DNA of 19,209 nucleotides from a virus (IMGVR_UViG_2684622670_000013:1-19209); one strand, 5' to 3'; numbered from the stretch's first letter, positions 8,481 through 19,209 are shown. The notes: generated by a model from the letters alone, not told the origin. Translations and numbers: made by a program.

Positions 8481-8759
8481 ATGAAAGCAATTGAACACTC
8501 TTACAAAGAGATGATGCACGCACGATTGGTTGCGAGTGGGTATACCCCAGAAGAAGCAGACAAACTCGTAAACCATGATGAAACAGACTTAGCCGCCGTG
8601 ATAAAGCTAAATTTGGCATATTCTCTATCCCTGTGTAGTTTAGAGAGCACACTCAGGTCCATTGTTGCGTCACCTAAATCAACCTCGGCAGACGCGGTAG
8701 AAGCGATGAAGTTGCTAGTAGAGCTATCAGCACGGCATGAGCACTTATTCAAGTCCTAA
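8481..8759 (+). CDS. Hypothetical small protein (92 aa)
   Basis: ORF with protein-like composition (EEADKLVNHDETDLAAVIK...) and a weak ribosome-binding site. Its 3' end overlaps, on the opposite strand, the 3' end of 8745..9161. Coding status uncertain. Confidence 0.4.
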   Translation: MKAIEHSYKEMMHARLVASGYTPEEADKLVNHDETDLAAVIKLNLAYSLSLCSLESTLRSIVASPKSTSADAVEAMKLLVELSARHEHLFKS

Positions 8760-9161
8760 CTTGTCATGGAGTATTTTTGCAAACAACTTCGTGGCAATCT
8801 GCTTTGCGGCCGCCATAGGGGCTTCTGAAAAATCTTTTTTAATTCTTTCTTGAATTGGATTTTGACTAAGAGCCATGGCAAAGTCATGACCTTCTGATGT
8901 GAGAACAATGTCACATTCACCACCATGAAGTATTCCGTCTCCGCTAAAGTAGATTCCGGTGATATCCTCAAAGGAAGAGTATTTCAACTCTCTATCTCTG
9001 ATAATCCCTTGGTCAACCAGTAGGGTCAGGTGAAAAATTAGCTTAGACAGATCTTCTTGGTTTTTTTCGTAGAAACCTAAATCTCTGATTGTTATGTATG
9101 GTTTATCGGAGGTTAAGAACGTCGACAACACTTCTTTCAGATAGTCATAATCAATTTTCAT
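8745..9161 (-). CDS. Hypothetical protein, 138 aa (possibly DUF2513-like winged-helix protein), last gene of the RHH operon
   Basis: GAAGGA ribosome-binding site. Starts 10 nt after the stop of the upstream RHH gene (9172..9408), implying co-transcription. The DUF2513 resemblance is recalled from the N-terminal pattern MKIDYDYLKEVL and is unverified. Confidence 0.62.
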   Translation of the reverse strand: MKIDYDYLKEVLSTFLTSDKPYITIRDLGFYEKNQEDLSKLIFHLTLLVDQGIIRDRELKYSSFEDITGIYFSGDGILHGGECDIVLTSEGHDFAMALSQNPIQERIKKDFSEAPMAAAKQIATKLFAKILHDKLGLE

Positions 9162-9171
9162 ACGTTGTCCT

Positions 9172-9408
9172 TCACTGTTTGTCCTTGCTGTACATTTTTG
9201 TTAAGGTCTCAAGAAGCGCCTCTTTGAACTTTTCAGCTTCACGAGAAGCGAATTCCTCTTTGCTACTCACATCGTTGGAAACAGCATCAAGGAGAATTTG
9301 AACAATTTCAGCATTCATAGATCTTCTGTTGTTCTTTGCACGCAACCTTATTTTCTCTTTTAACTCATTGGAAACGCGGATATTTATCTGCGGCTCTTCT
9401 CTAGACAT
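9172..9408 (-). CDS. mnt: Mnt-like ribbon-helix-helix repressor
   Basis: 78 aa. Its N-terminus INIRVSNELKEKIRLRAKNNRRSMNAEIVQIL parallels the P22 Mnt/Arc RHH motif (FNFRMP...AEANGRSMNSELLQIV), and the C-terminus LLETLTKMYSK resembles the Mnt C-terminal helix. GGAGG ribosome-binding site 5 nt upstream. Confidence 0.75.
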   Translation of the reverse strand: MSREEPQINIRVSNELKEKIRLRAKNNRRSMNAEIVQILLDAVSNDVSSKEEFASREAEKFKEALLETLTKMYSKDKQ

Positions 9409-9455
9409 GATGCCTCCGTGGTGTAACCGTAATGCAACCTCGTAATATCGTCTTC

Positions 9456-9698
9456 TTACTTGATGTTTACTTCCTTAATGGCTGCAACCTCTCTCTCAAG
9501 AGCTATTAATCTTTCGGTTAAGGAAGAAAGGCTAAGCGAGTGAACATTTTTATTTTCTTCTGCCCATGCACTTAGAGCTGCAACCATTTCTGCATTTAAA
9601 GATCTGCCATTCGCCTCAGCTAACGCGGTTAGGCGATCCTTTATCTCCACAGGAAGTCGAAGATTAACTTGTGGGTTCTTGTACCTGCGTTCAGACAT
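9456..9698 (-). CDS. Arc/Mnt-family ribbon-helix-helix DNA-binding protein (second paralog)
   Basis: 80 aa. VNLRLPVEIKDRLTALAEANGRSLNAEMVAAL matches the Arc-family RHH signature. First gene transcribed leftward from the divergent promoter region. Confidence 0.78.
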   Translation of the reverse strand: MSERRYKNPQVNLRLPVEIKDRLTALAEANGRSLNAEMVAALSAWAEENKNVHSLSLSSLTERLIALEREVAAIKEVNIK

Positions 9699-9803
9699 CA
9701 GCGTATCCTGAATAATTTTTTACCACAGGATATGTAGGTATCTATTGACTATCAATGCGTACCTAAATACTATGTATGCGTACCACATGCAGCGGAGGAT
9801 GCA
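9699..9803. promoter_or_regulatory. Divergent promoter/operator region (Pant-like rightward, Pmnt-like leftward)
   Basis: Candidate rightward promoter: -35 TTGACT (9745-9750), 17 bp spacer, -10 TACTAT (9768-9773), then GGAGG and ATG at 9804. A 13 bp palindrome ATTGA-cta-TCAAT (9744-9756) overlaps the -35. Direct repeats of GCGTACC (9758-9764 and 9778-9784) flank the -10. The repeats could be operator half-sites. Confidence 0.5.
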
Positions 9804-9944
9804 ATGAAGGTAAAAACACTGCGTATGCCAGAGAAGTTAGAAAAAATCCTTGAAGAGAAAGCAAAGGAAGAGTGTCGCTCATTTAGCGCAGAAGTAATTA
9901 AAAGGGTGTTGGACAGCTTGAAAAGAGAGGGGATAACAGTATGA
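9804..9944 (+). CDS. arc: Arc-like ribbon-helix-helix repressor (46 aa)
   Basis: Not in the ORF track (too short). The translation MKVKTLRMPEKLEKILEEKAKEECRSFSAEVIKRVLDSLKREGITV aligns position by position with P22 Arc (...FNLRWPREVLDLVRKVAEENGRSVNSEIYQRVMESFKKEGRIGA). GGAGG ribosome-binding site. Its stop overlaps the next gene's start (ATGA). Confidence 0.72.
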   Translation: MKVKTLRMPEKLEKILEEKAKEECRSFSAEVIKRVLDSLKREGITV

Positions 9945-10144
9945 GTAAAGAATGTTGTTTCTGCGGCATTAGCGAATCAGACGCTGATCAAACATACATT
10001 TACTCTAAAGAAACAGGTCGGATGCTGTGTAGTGACTGCGTGTTGGACATCATAAGATACAAGCATCTTGGATGTTCTGCCAGCATTAGCAATATAGGTG
10101 AAGTATACGAAGGGAAAGATATAACTGATAGAGCAGAAAGTTGA
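9941..10144 (+). CDS. Small zinc-finger protein, ClpX N-terminal C4-type-like (67 aa)
   Basis: CCFCGISE...(17 aa)...CSDCVLDIIR has the CxxC...CxxC spacing and flanking residues of the ClpX-type zinc-binding domain (CSFCGK...CDEC in ClpX). Translationally coupled to the arc-like gene and upstream of the antirepressor. Confidence 0.6.
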   Translation: MSKECCFCGISESDADQTYIYSKETGRMLCSDCVLDIIRYKHLGCSASISNIGEVYEGKDITDRAES

Positions 10145-10207
10145 AGCCCCAACTGCTGTAACAGTCAGGGCTTCGGTATCGTAAAACCACGCATAGGAAT
10201 TAACGAC

Positions 10208-11067
10208 ATGAAAAGTATAGCAACAGCGGTATCTACTATCAACGTGCCATTCCACGGCGCAGAGCTTTATGTTGTCAATCACAACGGCGAACCGTACACC
10301 CCAATGAAACCTATCGTTGAGGGAATGGGCTAGACTGGAAATCTCAACATAAGAAGATTTCTCAACGCTTCTCGAAGGGTATGGTGGAAATCACCATACC
10401 TTCTGCCGGTGGGGTGCAAGCCATGATTTGTATGGCTTTGCGAAAATTGGCAGCTTGGTTGAACAGCATCAGTCCTAACAAAGTCCGCCCTGAAATCCGC
10501 GACAAGGTAATCCAGTATCAGGAAGAGTGTGACGATGTGCTCTACGAGTACTGGACTAAAGGCCATGTGGTTAACCCGCGCAAAGCTAAAAAGACGTTGC
10601 CGGGAAAAATCACCACTGAACAGCAGGAAGCCATTAAACAACTCGTCATGAGTCGCGGTCAGTCTCTGCCAAAAGAAAAACAGGCGAAGGCGATGATCAC
10701 CATGTGGTCGTCACTGAAATCCCATTTTGGATGTTCGTACAAAGAAATCAGTGAGGAGCAGTTTACCGAAGCACTATCACTTGCGGCTCGTATTCCACTT
10801 GAAGGCGAATTCATCGGCAAGTCGGAACATAATGAGATGAGTTGTTTTGATTGGAGGATGAATGTTCATAACCTGAACTCGGCGTGCATTCACCTGGATG
10901 CCATGTACAGAATATGGAGAGACGAAATGGAACCCGCTTTACGATTGCTTGGCTCTCCGGTTGCGGCAAGATTTTACGGAAGAATTGCAGATTGCTATTC
11001 CGTAACTGCAAGCGTTAAGAAAAGTCTGGAGGATGCCGCAGGGCTGAAAGGCTTACAACCATTTTAA
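10208..11067 (+). pseudogene. ant: Phage antirepressor (P22 Ant-type, AR N-terminal domain), apparently disrupted by a 1-nt frameshift near 10327-10330
   Basis: ATG at 10208 encodes MKSIATAVSTINVPFHGAELYVVNHNGEPYTPMKPIVEGMG, then stops at 10331-10333. The next frame continues ...LDWKSQHKKISQRFSKGMVEITIPSAGG... to 11067. Joined, the sequence reads ...KPIVEGMGLDWKSQ..., which is the conserved core of the antirepressor N-terminal domain. The break lies in a GGG run. Confidence 0.62.
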
Positions 11068-11070
11068 CTA

Positions 11071-11089
11071 CCTGCACGAAAAGTGCAGG
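11071..11089 (+). other. Hairpin CCTGCAC-gaaaa-GTGCAGG immediately after the antirepressor stop
   Basis: Perfect 7 bp stem with a 5 nt loop; no following U-run. Forms a tandem pair with the downstream terminator. Confidence 0.4.
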
Positions 11090-11107
11090 TCAATAACCAA
11101 CGCAACG

Positions 11108-11133
11108 ACCCAGCTTCGGCTGGGTTTTTGTTT
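11108..11133 (+). terminator. Rho-independent terminator (ACCCAGC-ttcg-GCTGGGT followed by TTTTGTTT)
   Basis: GC-rich 7 bp stem, TTCG tetraloop, T-rich tract. Lies 40 nt after the antirepressor stop and 12 nt before the ATG at 11146. Confidence 0.72.
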
Positions 11134-11145
11134 AATGGAGAGTAG

Positions 11146-11961
11146 ATGGGCATAATCGATTTAAACACAGCAGACATATTCAATGCTATCGGTGGTGGCT
11201 CTCCGCTTTCGATCATCGACAGCGTTCTGCATCCCCAGTATGTGATTCGTGACAGGGAAACTGGCGAGGTTGCTCTTGAGTTCAGTGGTATGGCATCCGT
11301 ACAGCCAAGTGGAAGGGCGCAAATAACAAACGCTCCGGTGGAGAAAGGGAAATACCAGTCCATCAACAAAGTTAAAGAACCAGCCAGAGTAAGATGCGCA
11401 ATCATCGTAAATGGTCTTACTGGTTTTTCCGGCAATATCCCGAATATTTTCGATCTCACATTCACAAGCCAGAACAGCACGCTGAACACAATCAAAACGA
11501 TGCTGTCCTCTGCAAAAACATACGATATTGAAACGCCAAAGGAAACTCTGGAGAGTTTCGACCTTGTTGACCACTATTACGAAGTTAACTCTCAAAAAGG
11601 GGTGACTCTTCTGACGGTTTATCTTGATTTTCAGGAGGTCATTCAGCAAATGGAGGTTATCCTCTCTAGCTCTCAGTCAGAACAGAAGCCAACGGATAAC
11701 AATAAGTCACAGGGAGATGTAGGAGTTGATCCGCAAATAACCAATGGCGGAGCCAGGGAATCTACTGTCGATGAGCTAAGTGAGTCATGGTCATCACTGA
11801 AGTCATCTGTTGGCGACATCACTGGAAAAATCTCTGACACAATCAAGACTGAATTCCAGAGTGCTCTTGATACGGTGTCCAAACCAATACTCGAAGTTAC
11901 AAACAGCGCAACAAAAAAAGCGGCAGATATTGCAAAAAATATAGTTAAGGCGAGCACATGA
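11146..11961 (+). CDS. Phage tail/baseplate-associated protein, function unknown
   Basis: 271 aa; first gene of the resumed plus-strand late operon. Its stop overlaps the next gene's start. Low-complexity Ser/Thr-rich C-terminus. Confidence 0.6.
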   Translation: MGIIDLNTADIFNAIGGGSPLSIIDSVLHPQYVIRDRETGEVALEFSGMASVQPSGRAQITNAPVEKGKYQSINKVKEPARVRCAIIVNGLTGFSGNIPNIFDLTFTSQNSTLNTIKTMLSSAKTYDIETPKETLESFDLVDHYYEVNSQKGVTLLTVYLDFQEVIQQMEVILSSSQSEQKPTDNNKSQGDVGVDPQITNGGARESTVDELSESWSSLKSSVGDITGKISDTIKTEFQSALDTVSKPILEVTNSATKKAADIAKNIVKAST

Positions 11962-12260
11962 TTACAGTATCTGTTCTTCCCAGCAAATCTCAGTCCATTT
12001 CGGTAAGTCTGGCTGGTCAGCAATGTAATATAAAACTTGTTCAGCGACAGAGTTTTATGTACATGGATTTAACTGTTAATGAAGTCCCAATTATGCAGGG
12101 CGTTCCATGTCTGTATGGGAATAAGATGGTAAGATATTCCTACCTTGGATTTAAGGGAGACCTTATTTTCATTGATAATGATGGGGAATCGGATCCGCAA
12201 TGGGAAGGCTTGGGTAGCCGTTACTTGCTGTATTACATCGAGGAAAACGAGCTTGTATAA
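11958..12260 (+). CDS. Small phage baseplate/tail protein (100 aa), function unknown
   Basis: ORF coupled (ATGA) to the upstream gene; operon context. Confidence 0.55.
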   Translation: MITVSVLPSKSQSISVSLAGQQCNIKLVQRQSFMYMDLTVNEVPIMQGVPCLYGNKMVRYSYLGFKGDLIFIDNDGESDPQWEGLGSRYLLYYIEENELV

Positions 12261-18051: not shown

Positions 18052-19209
18052 TCACTCCACCTTTTCATCAAGCCAGTCCGCCCACCACTGCATCATTTCT
18101 CTGCGCTTATCGAGATACTGAGCATGGTTGTAAATTCCACGCACAGAACCGCCGTTGGCATGTGCCAGTTGCACTTCAATAGCATCAGCGGGCCATTCGT
18201 GCTCGTTCATAATCGTGCTGAATTCATGCCTGAATCCGTGACCGCTTTCCAGACCCTCATATCCGATTTGTTTGATCACAAGTAGCACTGCGTTCTCACA
18301 GATTGGCTTCTTCTTATCGTTGCGCCCGGCAAAAACAAACTCTGATACTGGTTTGGTGATTGAGATTAGCGTAGTGAGAAGTTCAACTACTTGGTCTGAC
18401 ATAGGAACCACATGAATTTTGCGTCCCTTCATCACACTGGCGTCAATGGTGATAATCCTGTTTTCAAAATCGACGTTCTTCCATAGCATGGAACGAAGCT
18501 CTTTCGTTCTTAGGGCTGTGTAGCGTAAAACTTTGGTCGCAATGAGCGATACGATACTTCCTGAAAATGTTGCCAGTGCTTTGTTGAATGCCGGGAGCTG
18601 GTCTGCAGGAAGAAACGGGAAGTTCTTCTTGCGGTATCCTTTCATGGCGTCTGCAAGGTCAGGTGCCGGGTTATATTTAGCCCTTCCGGTGACAATAGCG
18701 TAACGGAAAACCTCGCCGCATCTTCTGCGTGCTTTGTTGGCTCGCTCCATTGCACCGCGATCTTCAAACCTGCGGATTACTTCAAGAAGTTGCATCGGCT
18801 CAATATCCTGAATTTCAAGGCTGCCGATGATAGGTAAAATGTCGTCATCAAACATTTTTGCAAGTTCATTTGCATAGCCTACCGACCAAACTTGCTTCTT
18901 GTGCTCGTACCATTCCTTGTAAACTGCACTAAAGGAATTGTTGTTAGACGAAGCCTTTTTCGCCTTTACCGGATCTATGCCAACCGAGATGTCTTTCCTC
19001 GCAGTCCATGCTTTATCCCTTGCCTCCTGCAAAGTCATAAGCGGATATTTTCCGACAGTCAGGATTTTCTCCTTACCGTCAATCTTGTAGCGAAGCTGCC
19101 AGACCTTTTTTCCAGATACAGGGACATAAAGGTACAGACCATTACCATCAACAAGTCGGTATGGTTTCTCTTTCGGCTTTGCCGCTTCAATCTGTTTAAC
19201 GGTGAGCAT
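18052..19209 (-). CDS. int: Tyrosine site-specific integrase (P4-type)
   Basis: 385 aa. N-terminus MLTVKQIEAAKPKEKPYRLVDGNGLYLYVPVSGKKVWQLRYKIDG is the characteristic P4-family arm-binding region. The C-terminal catalytic domain has ...GHGFRHEFST... and ...AHANGGSVRGIYNHAQY (candidate catalytic Tyr). The start codon is the last three bases of the window (reverse complement of ...gagcat). Confidence 0.9.
   Translation of the reverse strand: MLTVKQIEAAKPKEKPYRLVDGNGLYLYVPVSGKKVWQLRYKIDGKEKILTVGKYPLMTLQEARDKAWTARKDISVGIDPVKAKKASSNNNSFSAVYKEWYEHKKQVWSVGYANELAKMFDDDILPIIGSLEIQDIEPMQLLEVIRRFEDRGAMERANKARRRCGEVFRYAIVTGRAKYNPAPDLADAMKGYRKKNFPFLPADQLPAFNKALATFSGSIVSLIATKVLRYTALRTKELRSMLWKNVDFENRIITIDASVMKGRKIHVVPMSDQVVELLTTLISITKPVSEFVFAGRNDKKKPICENAVLLVIKQIGYEGLESGHGFRHEFSTIMNEHEWPADAIEVQLAHANGGSVRGIYNHAQYLDKRREMMQWWADWLDEKVE

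Follow-up and report, generated by a model that had tools for sequence, protein, structure and literature searches.

The window analyzed here, a stretch of viral DNA of 19,209 nucleotides, very probably (at about 0.85 in our estimate) carries in and around the block at 9541-10820 a P22-type secondary-immunity (immI) cassette, or "ant moron," set among the late genes of a contractile-tailed lambdoid prophage. This reading of the sequence is based on three Arc-family RHH genes, a sar RNA, a P22_AR_N domain, the ant terminator core, close identity to the immI region of CUS-3 and a P22-like gene order, all in a slot that is polymorphic among relatives. All of the immI parts that can be tested by sequence are found, sar and the ant terminator included, and the genes are ordered and oriented against the late operon as they are in P22, with the leftward prophage-expressed genes first followed by arc and ant running along the structural genes. 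The slot is a cargo site between the tape-measure gene and the Dit-like/baseplate genes of an Escherichia coli prophage with a PB1/E217-like tail. The ant moron, a term from Villafane et al. 2008, has been described, as has what mnt, arc, sar and ant each do (PMC2629481, PMC8022706); the kind of system is thus already known and its logic is unchanged by the present locus, the new element being the setting, a different tail type, for a well known module.

The genes bordering the cassette are as follows.
6131-7906, plus strand: tape-measure-position protein with a lytic-tail/transglycosylase-like part (phrog_873, phrog_2013, phrog_2276)
7915-8373, minus strand: 152-aa protein (ORF) with a signal-peptide-like segment at its N terminus, encoded by the first of the leftward cargo genes
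8745-9161, minus strand: 138-aa protein of phrog_585 (E 2e-17), named DUF2513 by PGAP in the homologue of the nearest relative, L002
11146-11961, plus strand: Dit-like protein (phrog_1830 E 8.5e-74; Pfam Dit_like 22.5 bits, just under the cutoff)
11958-12260, plus strand: baseplate plug (Pam3_gp18 E 1.7e-24)

The tape-measure-position gene belongs to the late operon and lies on the same strand as ant, with a tail-assembly-chaperone-like gene upstream, and its homologues are named "transglycosylase SLT domain" by PGAP. An earlier note on this DNA had placed the insertion in a contractile-tail cluster between tape measure and baseplate, and this location stands, but its label of a Mu/SfV-type tail is rejected on Pfam content (DUF3383 sheath, E217_Gp32 tube, Phage_tail_terminator_9 neck and Pam3_gp18 plug), a judgement at the level of protein families. 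By its domain content the tail is PB1/E217/Pam3-like and contractile. The only DNA match to the sheath-to-chaperone genes (3108-5917) among phage records is a Vibrio phage at 70%.

The tape-measure/Dit junction is assigned as a swappable moron slot because same-tail E. coli prophages differ in the cargo they hold there, which is P63C, a Panacea-domain gene pair, a LexA-type repressor with ant, two Arc genes with ant, or nothing, between flanking tail genes that are 91-99% identical. Four of these relatives, L003 (WS4437A-1), L005 (Z1323CEC0001), L006 (EC16) and L007 (TW10590), share the tail genes, insertion slot and terminator boundary with the present locus. L005 and L007 match it at 91-94% nucleotide identity from the proximal mnt across the spacer into the beginning of arc, whereas L006 has a LexA-family repressor in place of the RHH regulators and L003 a different Arc-family gene with a P22AR_C-type ant; none of the same-slot relatives has the combination of distal mnt and zinc-finger gene. 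A homologue of the 152-aa protein, which is without a match in Pfam, PHROG, PADLOC and NCBIfam, stands at the same place in L002, L003 and L004. One same-tail relative has a lambdoid early region with a LexA-family CI, Cro, CII and a Q antiterminator.

When the insert at 7907-11145 is compared with related prophage tail clusters it appears as variable, dispensable cargo in a late operon, with ant oriented along the late genes and the ant terminator at its end, as in known immI regions. That its genes might instead be conserved in this tail type for structure or assembly, as their position inside the tail cluster alone would suggest, is refuted by the pattern of presence and absence, with relatives holding 91-99% identical tape-measure and baseplate genes around other content or, in L004 and L008, around a slot without ant and RHH genes. 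Half of the insert genes lie on the opposite strand and the same block occurs in podoviruses, and we give this alternative practically no weight.

The RHH genes and the regulatory region between them comprise the following features.
9172-9408, minus strand: distal Mnt-like RHH repressor, 78 aa (Pfam Arc E 3e-12)
9456-9698, minus strand: proximal Mnt-like RHH repressor of CUS-3 type, 80 aa (Pfam Arc E 1.8e-10)
9699-9803, no strand: regulatory spacer between proximal mnt and arc, with repeats and divergent promoters
9755-9727, minus strand: Pmnt-like promoter, TTGATA-17-TATCCT (sigma-70-like promoter scan)
9745-9773, plus strand: Pant-like promoter, TTGACT-17-TACTAT (sigma-70-like promoter scan)
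9731-9748/9752-9769, no strand: 18-nt inverted repeat, candidate Arc operator (by analogy with P22)
9773-9791, no strand: palindrome-like TGTATG-N7-CATGCA over the Pant start, candidate Mnt operator (by analogy with P22)
9804-9944, plus strand: 46-aa Arc-like RHH repressor, encoded at the head of the rightward operon (Pfam Arc E 3.7e-8)

The three small ORFs, taken as Arc/Mnt RHH proteins in the earlier note, each score above the Pfam cutoff for Arc (PF03869). The likeness of the 46-aa protein to P22 Arc is also borne out, with a gapless alignment at 36% identity over 39 aa (pairwise E 2e-9), and copies 98% identical to it occur in P22-like IMG/VR contigs; an Arc-like gene thus appears to stand first in the rightward operon, and two predicted Mnt-like genes diverge from that arc-ant operon, in the immI manner. 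The distal Mnt is similar to P22 Mnt from end to end, its C-terminal region not excepted (37% identity over 84 columns, E 8e-18), and is 63-64% identical to the sole Mnt of loci L024 and L046, which assigns it by sequence to their specificity type, unlike the proximal Mnt; the survey of specificity types is partial, the pattern-based extraction of spacers having missed many P22-type loci. The proximal Mnt is 47% identical to the P22 Mnt N terminus over 32 aa and 59% identical overall to the proximal Mnt of CUS-3, with an identical β-strand (KNPQVNLRLP). Its gene adjoins the operator/promoter region and it is presumably the cognate repressor of Pant. The candidate cognate operator of the distal Mnt, the L024-type site GGTATAACGGTTATACC, is not found in the window at up to 3 mismatches, and the P22 Omnt is not found in the CUS-3 locus. 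The gene for the phrog_585 protein is probably the last of the leftward mnt operon, since it begins only 10 nt past the distal mnt stop; the protein is without a Pfam or PADLOC match.

RHH folds are common among antitoxins, and there are weak sub-threshold matches to FitA-like, HicB and RelB-like antitoxin models in Pfam and NCBIfam, so that the RHH proteins could in principle be antitoxins or regulators of unrelated cargo, for example a toxin-antitoxin or defence pair with the phrog_585/DUF2513 protein; the slot of relatives with a Panacea-domain gene and a hypothetical neighbour is possibly toxin-antitoxin-like by domain name only. The top matches of the RHH proteins are, however, Arc (PF03869) and PHROG families containing P22 Mnt, similarity to P22 Mnt extends over the full length, and sar, ant and the ant terminator remain syntenic with them. 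For defence or toxin-antitoxin functions no insert gene gives a PADLOC match, and NCBIfam returns sub-threshold matches only. We consider the antitoxin explanation very improbable.

The palindrome and direct repeats that had been noted between the RHH genes are present in the 9699-9803 spacer, where the direct repeats are of 21 nt, and the divergent promoter noted there corresponds to two sigma-70-like candidates. The -35 hexamers of the Pmnt-like and Pant-like promoters abut back to back, placing the start sites ~60 bp apart; P22 differs in that its Pmnt and Pant coincide over nearly their whole length. Over the full promoter scan, 6 sites were found against 7.5 expected in shuffled sequence, which is no excess; the credibility of the spacer promoters comes from their position and from near-100% conservation with CUS-3 and not from their count. 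The spacer is near-identical in CUS-3 and in at least nine IMG/VR loci. The assignments of candidate Arc and Mnt operators by P22 analogy are guesses, because the sequences are unrelated to those of the P22 operators.

The remaining features, from the zinc-finger gene to the terminator, are listed below.
9941-10144, plus strand: 67-aa Cys4 zinc-finger protein (phrog_7150 E 3.4e-50)
10139-10206, minus strand: sar antisense RNA (Rfam RF00262)
10208-11067, plus strand: ant antirepressor gene, interrupted (Pfam P22_AR_N over two ORFs)
10208-10333, plus strand: ant 5′ ORF, 41 aa (P22_AR_N positions 2-31, Pfam)
10214-10242, minus strand: Psar-like promoter, TTGATA-17-TATACT with TG, inside the first ant codons (promoter scan)
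10381-11067, plus strand: ant 3′ ORF, 228 aa (P22_AR_N positions 53-114, Pfam)
11095-11130, plus strand: ant terminator, hairpin 11107-11126 followed by a T run (terminator scan)

The extra zinc-finger gene reported between arc and ant is the 67-aa Cys4 ORF, the start codon of which overlaps the arc stop (ATGA), suggesting translational coupling. The ORF is without a Pfam match at E ≤ 0.1. The fold predicted in its AF2 model (pLDDT 63.5 for the model and ~75 for residues 1-40) comes nearest to the zinc-binding domain at the N terminus of ClpX, the top two Foldseek matches being the ClpX ZBD structures 2ds5 and 2ds8 (probabilities 0.96 and 0.84, TM on target 0.67, rmsd 2.1 Å, yet E 0.13). BLASTP against an approximate E. 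coli ClpX N-terminal query aligns 11 aa at E 0.029, and phmmer against the PDB gives only marginal RING-finger matches. A word-indexed homologue search returned 5 near-identical clusters, one of them called as an Arc-Znf fusion, and an exhaustive HMMER search returned one 68-aa relative and otherwise mostly long Cys-rich repeat proteins, which are regarded as spurious. The ORF is missing from several CUS-3-type loci and thus seems an optional accessory gene even among them.

The sar RNA, its promoter and the P22-identical ant terminator were not mentioned in the earlier note. The sar match is full length (1-68) and scores 82.3 bits where the gathering threshold is 43 (E 5.5e-17); the RNA is antisense to the 5′ leader of ant and to its Shine-Dalgarno sequence. 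The expected start of the Psar-like promoter is ~10206, in agreement with the annotated P22 Psar, so that a predicted sar covering the ant ribosome-binding site with its promoter within ant reproduces the geometry of the annotated P22 sar. The terminator lies immediately 5′ of the ribosome-binding site of the next tail gene, and P22, CUS-3, the contractile-tail relatives and the lambda-like locus L043 all have the same 21-nt core, which is present in 68 of the 111 fetched loci. Judged from these alignments, the sar 3′ hairpin is the conserved left boundary and the ant terminator the right boundary of the ant cassette, which appears to be a mosaic joined at these two elements, both common to podovirus and siphovirus versions; the sar and terminator sequences are likely recombination joints. 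A scan of species representatives for the sar hairpin gave 0 matches, which with one genome per species is little informative.

The antirepressor gene expected downstream is present, with a P22_AR_N domain and a PHROG match to "anti-repressor Ant" (E 2e-42), but it is split by a 1-nt deletion into ORFs of 41 and 228 aa. Alignment to CUS-3, L005 and L002 reveals G3 instead of G4 at 10327-10329, which leads to a TAG stop at 10331-10333. Because ant is frameshifted, the defining output of the circuit may be missing, and as assembled the cassette can apparently supply only repressors and sar, which by analogy with P22 would confer trans-immunity against the ant genes of incoming phages.

If the frameshift is real, the locus could be a decaying, repressor-only remnant that makes no Ant and either persists through trans-protection by Mnt, Arc and sar or is on its way to being lost. 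Other disrupted copies are consistent with such decay, including the independently disrupted ant of L002 in the same slot (PGAP: missing C terminus) and the ant fragment of L007, and morons with a degraded ant or with mnt only are documented in HK620, Scho1, ST64T and L (PMC2629481, PMC8022706). Against it, the lesion is single, and insertion of one G restores a 286-aa ORF that is 91.6% identical to the intact 286-aa orthologue in the same slot of strain Z1323CEC0001 (L005). Among 5,426 complete E. coli genomes none matches the G3 allele exactly over the full length, there are 0 matches in GTDB representatives and in JGI metagenomes, and 36/36 IMG/VR matches at the G run carry G4. This pattern of a single lesion in a private allele fits a homopolymer sequencing error equally well, and the deletion is accordingly best described as either a very recent lesion or such an error; in the latter case the whole switch is intact. 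We place the chance of a decaying remnant slightly below even. The remnant question bears on the functional state only, the immI identity of the cassette being undisputed by it. An annotation of the locus should mark the frameshift in ant and include sar and the arc-like and zinc-finger genes, which have gone unannotated.

Comparison with the P22 immI region (NC_002371 14240-16035, comprising mnt, Pmnt/Pant, arc, sar, ant and the ant terminator) shows that the parts and their order, the late-operon polarity, the P22_AR_N Ant, sar and the terminator core are shared. The proteins are only 33-37% identical (Ant 33%), and a second Mnt paralogue and the zinc-finger ORF are present here and not in P22, whereas the Ant C terminus is not of the P22 type. 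The flanks also differ, being the ejection-protein gene 16 and tailspike gene 9 in P22 and contractile-tail genes here. The P22 immI natively lies in the late structural operon between these two genes, beside other prophage-expressed cargo (PMC2629481), and for this reason the novelty of the present position is the tail type and not the late-operon location.

The immI of the Lederbergvirus CUS-3 (CP000711) is close, with 94% nucleotide identity over 9541-10820, a block that runs from the proximal mnt through the spacer, arc, the zinc-finger ORF and sar to two thirds of the way into ant; the earlier proposal that the module was acquired as a unit is supported by this identity, by the presence of each sequence-testable part and by the other cargo, or none, that same-tail relatives have at the junction. 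Morons of CUS-3 type also occur in UTI89, RS218 and APEC prophages. CUS-3 already has two tandem leftward mnt genes, an Arc-like ORF and a zinc-finger ORF, so that the arrangement of two leftward RHH genes and a zinc finger, read in the earlier note as an altered layout, is present but is not an innovation of this locus. The terminator is identical and is annotated in CUS-3 as "boundary sequence bsq1." The CUS-3 context is that of a podovirus, with a DNA-transfer protein gene and an endosialidase tailspike gene as flanks, its distal Mnt is of P22 type (β-strand DDPHFNFRMP) whereas that of the present locus is of L024 type, and its ant is intact with a C terminus that is P22-like by sequence inspection. 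A 2008 comparison stated CUS-3 to be without arc (PMC2629481), and the arc-like and zinc-finger ORFs are unannotated there, inside "bsq2"; the Pfam match reveals the Arc-family gene of the CUS-3-type locus and corrects the published impression that such morons lack arc.

The present locus takes the known range of the P22 ant moron beyond short-tailed P22-like phages to a lambdoid prophage whose contractile tail is PB1/E217-like, and IMG/VR loci widen it further to lambda-like siphovirus tail clusters. Three such sar-bearing ant cassettes were found in siphovirus-type clusters, two of them (L043 and L011) between homologues of lambda gpL and gpK/I/J and the third (L062) after a long ORF that is placed like a tape measure and is without a Pfam match; the non-contractile nature of the tail is given by Pfam for L043 only and for L062 by reading ORF N termini. 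These cassettes share the sar hairpin, the ant terminator, an Mnt-like RHH gene divergent from ant and the orientation of ant along the tail genes, but have other Ant N-domains (Bro-N, ORF6N), and in L043 no arc is detected and a Clp-protease-like gene is co-transcribed with mnt.

By analogy with P22, the leftward Pmnt operon would in the lysogen supply both Mnt proteins together with the phrog_585 protein, and the proximal Mnt, bound at the candidate site 9773-9791 near the Pant start, would keep arc, the zinc-finger gene and ant silent. Upon infection or derepression Pant would fire, and Arc acting on the symmetric 9731-9769 element over the abutting -35 hexamers would turn off both promoters, while sar, transcribed from Psar inside ant, would pair with the ant ribosome-binding site and reduce translation. 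Any Ant produced would act by binding and inactivating a repressor of CI/C2 type; the prophage's own repressor lies outside the window, and such a CI is known only from a same-tail relative. As in P22, Q-modified late transcription would cross the cassette and reach the baseplate genes.

A wider reading, which taken as a whole we regard as doubtful, is that ant cassettes may be portable immunity units, delimited by sar hairpin and ant terminator, that may have recombined into lambdoid late operons of all three tail morphologies, always with ant along late transcription. The units would carry "stacked" Mnt proteins of different specificity, the distal one being of L024 type here and of P22 type in CUS-3, and both distal Mnts, each without its presumed operator in cis, would act only in trans. 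A distal Mnt would then silence the antirepressor promoters of heteroimmune phages, leaving the resident prophage not inducible by a superinfecting phage, and the testable idea follows that tandem Mnt genes of differing specificity may broaden secondary immunity in polylysogens. The ClpX-ZBD-like zinc finger of the present cassette and the Clp-protease-like gene of L043 would, as a further part of this reading, link turnover of Ant or the repressor to Clp proteolysis.

The immunity module lies inside a contractile-tail gene cluster, as the earlier note had claimed, and its finding is real and its interpretation correct in outline: the locus is an ant moron of the P22/CUS-3 type, a known module in a new tail background. 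Arc/Mnt proteins, a sar RNA, an ant terminator and a 94% identical stretch, 9541-10820, in immI of CUS-3, a P22-like podovirus, carry this assignment. The sar RNA and the terminator had both been overlooked. The elements of the module are as follows.

9172-9408, minus strand, distal Mnt-like RHH protein (Pfam Arc PF03869, E 3e-12, above cutoff)
9456-9698, minus strand, proximal Mnt-like RHH protein (PF03869, E 1.8e-10, above cutoff)
9699-9803, 105-bp spacer, with predicted rightward (plus, TTGACT-17-TACTAT) and leftward (minus, TTGATA-17-TATCCT) promoters
9731-9748 / 9752-9769, 18-nt inverted repeat in the spacer
9804-9944, plus strand, Arc-like RHH protein (PF03869, E 3.7e-8, above cutoff)
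9941-10144, plus strand, 67-aa Cys4 zinc-finger ORF overlapping the arc stop codon (phrog_7150, E 3.4e-50)
10139-10206, minus strand, sar antisense RNA (Rfam RF00262, full length, 82.3 bits against a gathering score of 43, E 5.5e-17)
10242..10214, minus strand, predicted TG-extended sar promoter
11107-11130, P22 ant terminator, hairpin and T run

The three small RHH ORFs noticed earlier are thus all present, and in profile searches they match the PHROG families of Arc-like repressors and P22 Mnt as well as Pfam Arc. The near position-by-position likeness of the 46-aa protein to P22 Arc holds in a pairwise alignment free of gaps (14/39 identical, E 2e-9). The distal 78-aa protein can be aligned end to end with P22 Mnt (37% identity, E 8e-18), the proximal 80-aa protein only in the N-terminal RHH part (47% over 32 aa).

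The spacer contains the divergent promoter, palindrome and direct repeats that had been described, in the form of two consensus-like predicted promoters with abutting -35 hexamers, the 18-nt inverted repeat and 21-nt direct repeats. Shuffled sequence yields at least as many promoter-like sites, so the support for the promoters comes from position and conservation and not from number. A candidate Mnt operator at 9773-9791 reads TGTATG-N7-CATGCA in the window, whereas in CUS-3 and the IMG/VR loci of CUS-3 type it is a perfect 6+6 palindrome, TGTATG-N7-CATACA; the window copy therefore has one half-site change. The predicted sar promoter would start transcription at about 10206; sar thus overlies the ant leader to the base just ahead of the ATG (10208), exactly the geometry annotated in P22. 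A 21-nt terminator core is identical in P22, CUS-3, related contractile-tail prophages and one lambda-like contig; of 111 loci retrieved, 68 have it.

Two RHH genes and an extra zinc finger had been taken as peculiar to this locus. Two leftward mnt genes are already present in CUS-3, as are arc-like and zinc-finger ORFs, unannotated, inside the feature "boundary sequence bsq2", so the layout is that of CUS-3 and not an innovation here. A 2008 survey of ant morons described CUS-3 as apparently lacking arc (PMC2629481); contrary to this, Pfam identifies an Arc-family gene in it. Between the spacer and mid-ant only a few positions differ between the window and CUS-3. Comparison with relatives shows the insert to be a mosaic in which four blocks can be told apart. 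The 152-aa gene matches the E. coli prophage WS4437A-1. The phrog_585 gene (8745-9161, minus) and the 3' end of distal mnt match L002, the closest relative, up to a junction near 9253 within mnt. The stretch from proximal mnt to mid-ant matches CUS-3, and the 3' part of ant with the terminator matches the prophage Z1323CEC0001 and L002. In L002, identity to the window is 97.5% across the phrog_585 gene and the final (C-terminal) third of the distal Mnt, but the N-terminal DNA-binding part differs; the junction suggests shuffling between the RHH and C-terminal domains of Mnt. The integrase gene (18052-19209, minus) is 94-96% identical in DNA to int of HK620, Sf6, CUS-3 and HK633 (IntS type), so the prophage shares int and the ant cassette with P22-like podoviruses while its virion is different.

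Among the spacers compared, at least five types unrelated in sequence can be distinguished, and each goes with particular β-strand sequences in Arc and Mnt; the survey covers the loci whose spacers were extracted and is partial for P22-type loci. The proximal Mnt strand KNPQVNLRLP and the spacer are common to CUS-3-type loci. The distal Mnt is instead similar to the single Mnt of two IMG/VR loci, L024 and L046 (63-64% identity, same PQINIR strand), and their spacer has a perfect 17-bp palindrome, GGTATAACGGTTATACC, overlapping the predicted -10 hexamer of Pant. The P22 Mnt operator has the same length and central base and lies just downstream of the Pant -10. A search of the window that allowed up to three mismatches finds no copy of this palindrome. 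In CUS-3 the distal Mnt is instead of P22 type, and the P22 operator is absent from that locus. The distal mnt genes may be scars of cassette replacement; a more interesting alternative is that the distal Mnt proteins may act in trans as repressors of the ant promoters of other phages.

The antirepressor gene noticed earlier does encode a P22_AR_N domain, but its reading frame is split, and ant is broken as assembled. The domain is divided between a 41-aa ORF (10208-10333, profile positions 2-31) and a 228-aa ORF (10381-11067, positions 53-114), since a G4 run in CUS-3 is GGG at 10327-10329 in the window and brings TAG (10331-10333) into frame. With one G added, the frames join into a single 286-aa protein, which shares 91.6% identity with the complete Ant encoded in the same slot of Z1323CEC0001. 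The deleted allele is absent from 5,426 complete E. coli genomes (the best full-length matches all span 62 bases), from all 36 IMG/VR copies, from GTDB species representatives and from JGI metagenomes, which leaves two readings, a private mutation of very recent origin or a sequencing error in the homopolymer. An independently truncated ant in L002 and an ant fragment in the prophage TW10590 make decay of ant in the contractile-tail slot plausible. By homology with P22 at each step, Mnt made by the prophage would repress Pant; on firing of Pant, Arc would shut down both promoters, sar would block translation of ant, Ant would inactivate a CI/C2-type repressor, and Q-dependent transcription of the late operon would continue across the cassette to the baseplate genes. 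Whether the locus is a full switch or a set of repressors only depends on the state of ant.

The tail itself is not of the Mu/SfV type proposed earlier, a label ruled out by the Pfam families of the sheath (DUF3383), tube (E217_Gp32), neck (Phage_tail_terminator_9) and plug (Pam3_gp18). Deposited phages include no close DNA-level relative. WS4437A-1 is a lambdoid E. coli prophage, 98% identical over shared parts of the tail region, with a P22/lambda-like early region, LexA-family CI, Cro, CII, nin genes, Q antiterminator and IntS integrase, which places the window cassette in a Q-antiterminated late operon. P22 immI lies within the late operon between genes 16 and 9 (PMC2629481, PMC8022706), and the polarity agrees: genes expressed in the prophage come first and point leftward, and arc and ant follow in the orientation of the structural genes.

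The module is cargo in a slot between the tape-measure-position gene (6131-7906) and the Dit-like and baseplate plug genes (11146-12260). Modular acquisition, as had been suggested, is borne out by relatives that match at 91-99% identity in the tape-measure and baseplate genes and vary in slot content: another Arc-family gene and a P22AR_C-type ant (WS4437A-1), a small gene and a P63C gene only (L004), two Arc genes and ant (Z1323CEC0001 and TW10590), a LexA-family repressor and ant (EC16) or a Panacea-domain gene pair (L008). Homology with the window restarts at the terminator (11093-11108) in all slot relatives compared. Of 5,426 complete E. coli genomes, only 19 have this tail family's junction at the Dit-like gene, against about 520 with the ant terminator itself.

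Directly past the tape-measure gene, a 152-aa protein with a signal-peptide-like N terminus (7915-8373, minus), without a family match in any library, holds the place of sieA in the P22 moron; relatives have a homologue or different small genes there. A plus-strand terminator-like hairpin (8434-8455) lies just upstream of its start. The 92-aa ORF that fills the gap before the phrog_585 gene (8481-8759, plus) has no family match and no PGAP call in the 97.5% identical L002, and is thus probably not a gene. At the left end, 5' of the head-tail genes, an IS66-family transposase (31-1557, plus; DDE_Tnp_IS66 E 1e-102, zf-IS66 and LZ domains) has copies of 97% identity in Escherichia phage GER2 and PPwrbA_EC3734. 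Just 5' of the neck-terminator gene, a 177-aa HNH_3 and AP2 protein of homing-endonuclease-like architecture (2534-3067, plus) is likely another selfish insert in the late operon.

An exact search places the sar hairpin in 66 IMG/VR contigs, most of them P22-like with gp16 on one side and the gp9 N terminus on the other. In L043 and L011 a cassette of a Mnt-like gene, a Clp-protease-like gene, sar and a Bro-N/P22_AR_C Ant lies between homologues of lambda gpL and gpK/I/J. In L062, a siphovirus-like cluster by reading of ORF N termini, mnt, arc, sar and ant directly follow a long ORF in the position of a tape-measure gene; this ORF and one downstream have no Pfam match. The contractile tail has a distant relative in L045 (UViG_2907847951_000001), with 33% identity in the sheath, 34% in the Dit-like protein and 46% in the plug. 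Its immI occupies a different junction, where mnt, arc and sar of P22 type follow a baseplate gene and not the tape-measure gene. A Rha-like regulator gene, assigned from the N-terminal sequence alone, lies between its tube and tape-measure genes. Throughout, ant runs in the same direction as the tail genes.

The zinc-finger ORF has very few relatives in homologue searches and is optional: in several IMG/VR loci whose Arc is 98% identical, sar follows arc directly, and two loci have an identical zinc-finger ORF beside a different arc. A 112-aa protein from a Logan assembly (P0001) matches PF03869 and fuses the Arc-like and zinc-finger ORFs in one call, probably through a 1-nt indel at the ATGA overlap, though the fusion could also point to joint action of the two. 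The AlphaFold model, from a five-sequence alignment, is of moderate confidence (pLDDT about 75 for residues 1-40, 63.5 overall), and in the PDB it most resembles two structures of the ClpX N-terminal zinc-binding domain, 2ds5 (probability 0.96) and 2ds8 (0.84), with an rmsd of 2.1 Å and E only 0.13. Sequence tests are not significant, and the possible link to ClpX is a lead and not a finding. The Clp-protease-family protein of L043 (178 aa, 11077-11613, also in L011 and L074; PF00574, E 1.6e-11) is encoded directly 3' of the Mnt-like gene and, beside the ClpX-ZBD-like zinc finger, is a second hint that immI may be tied to Clp proteolysis.
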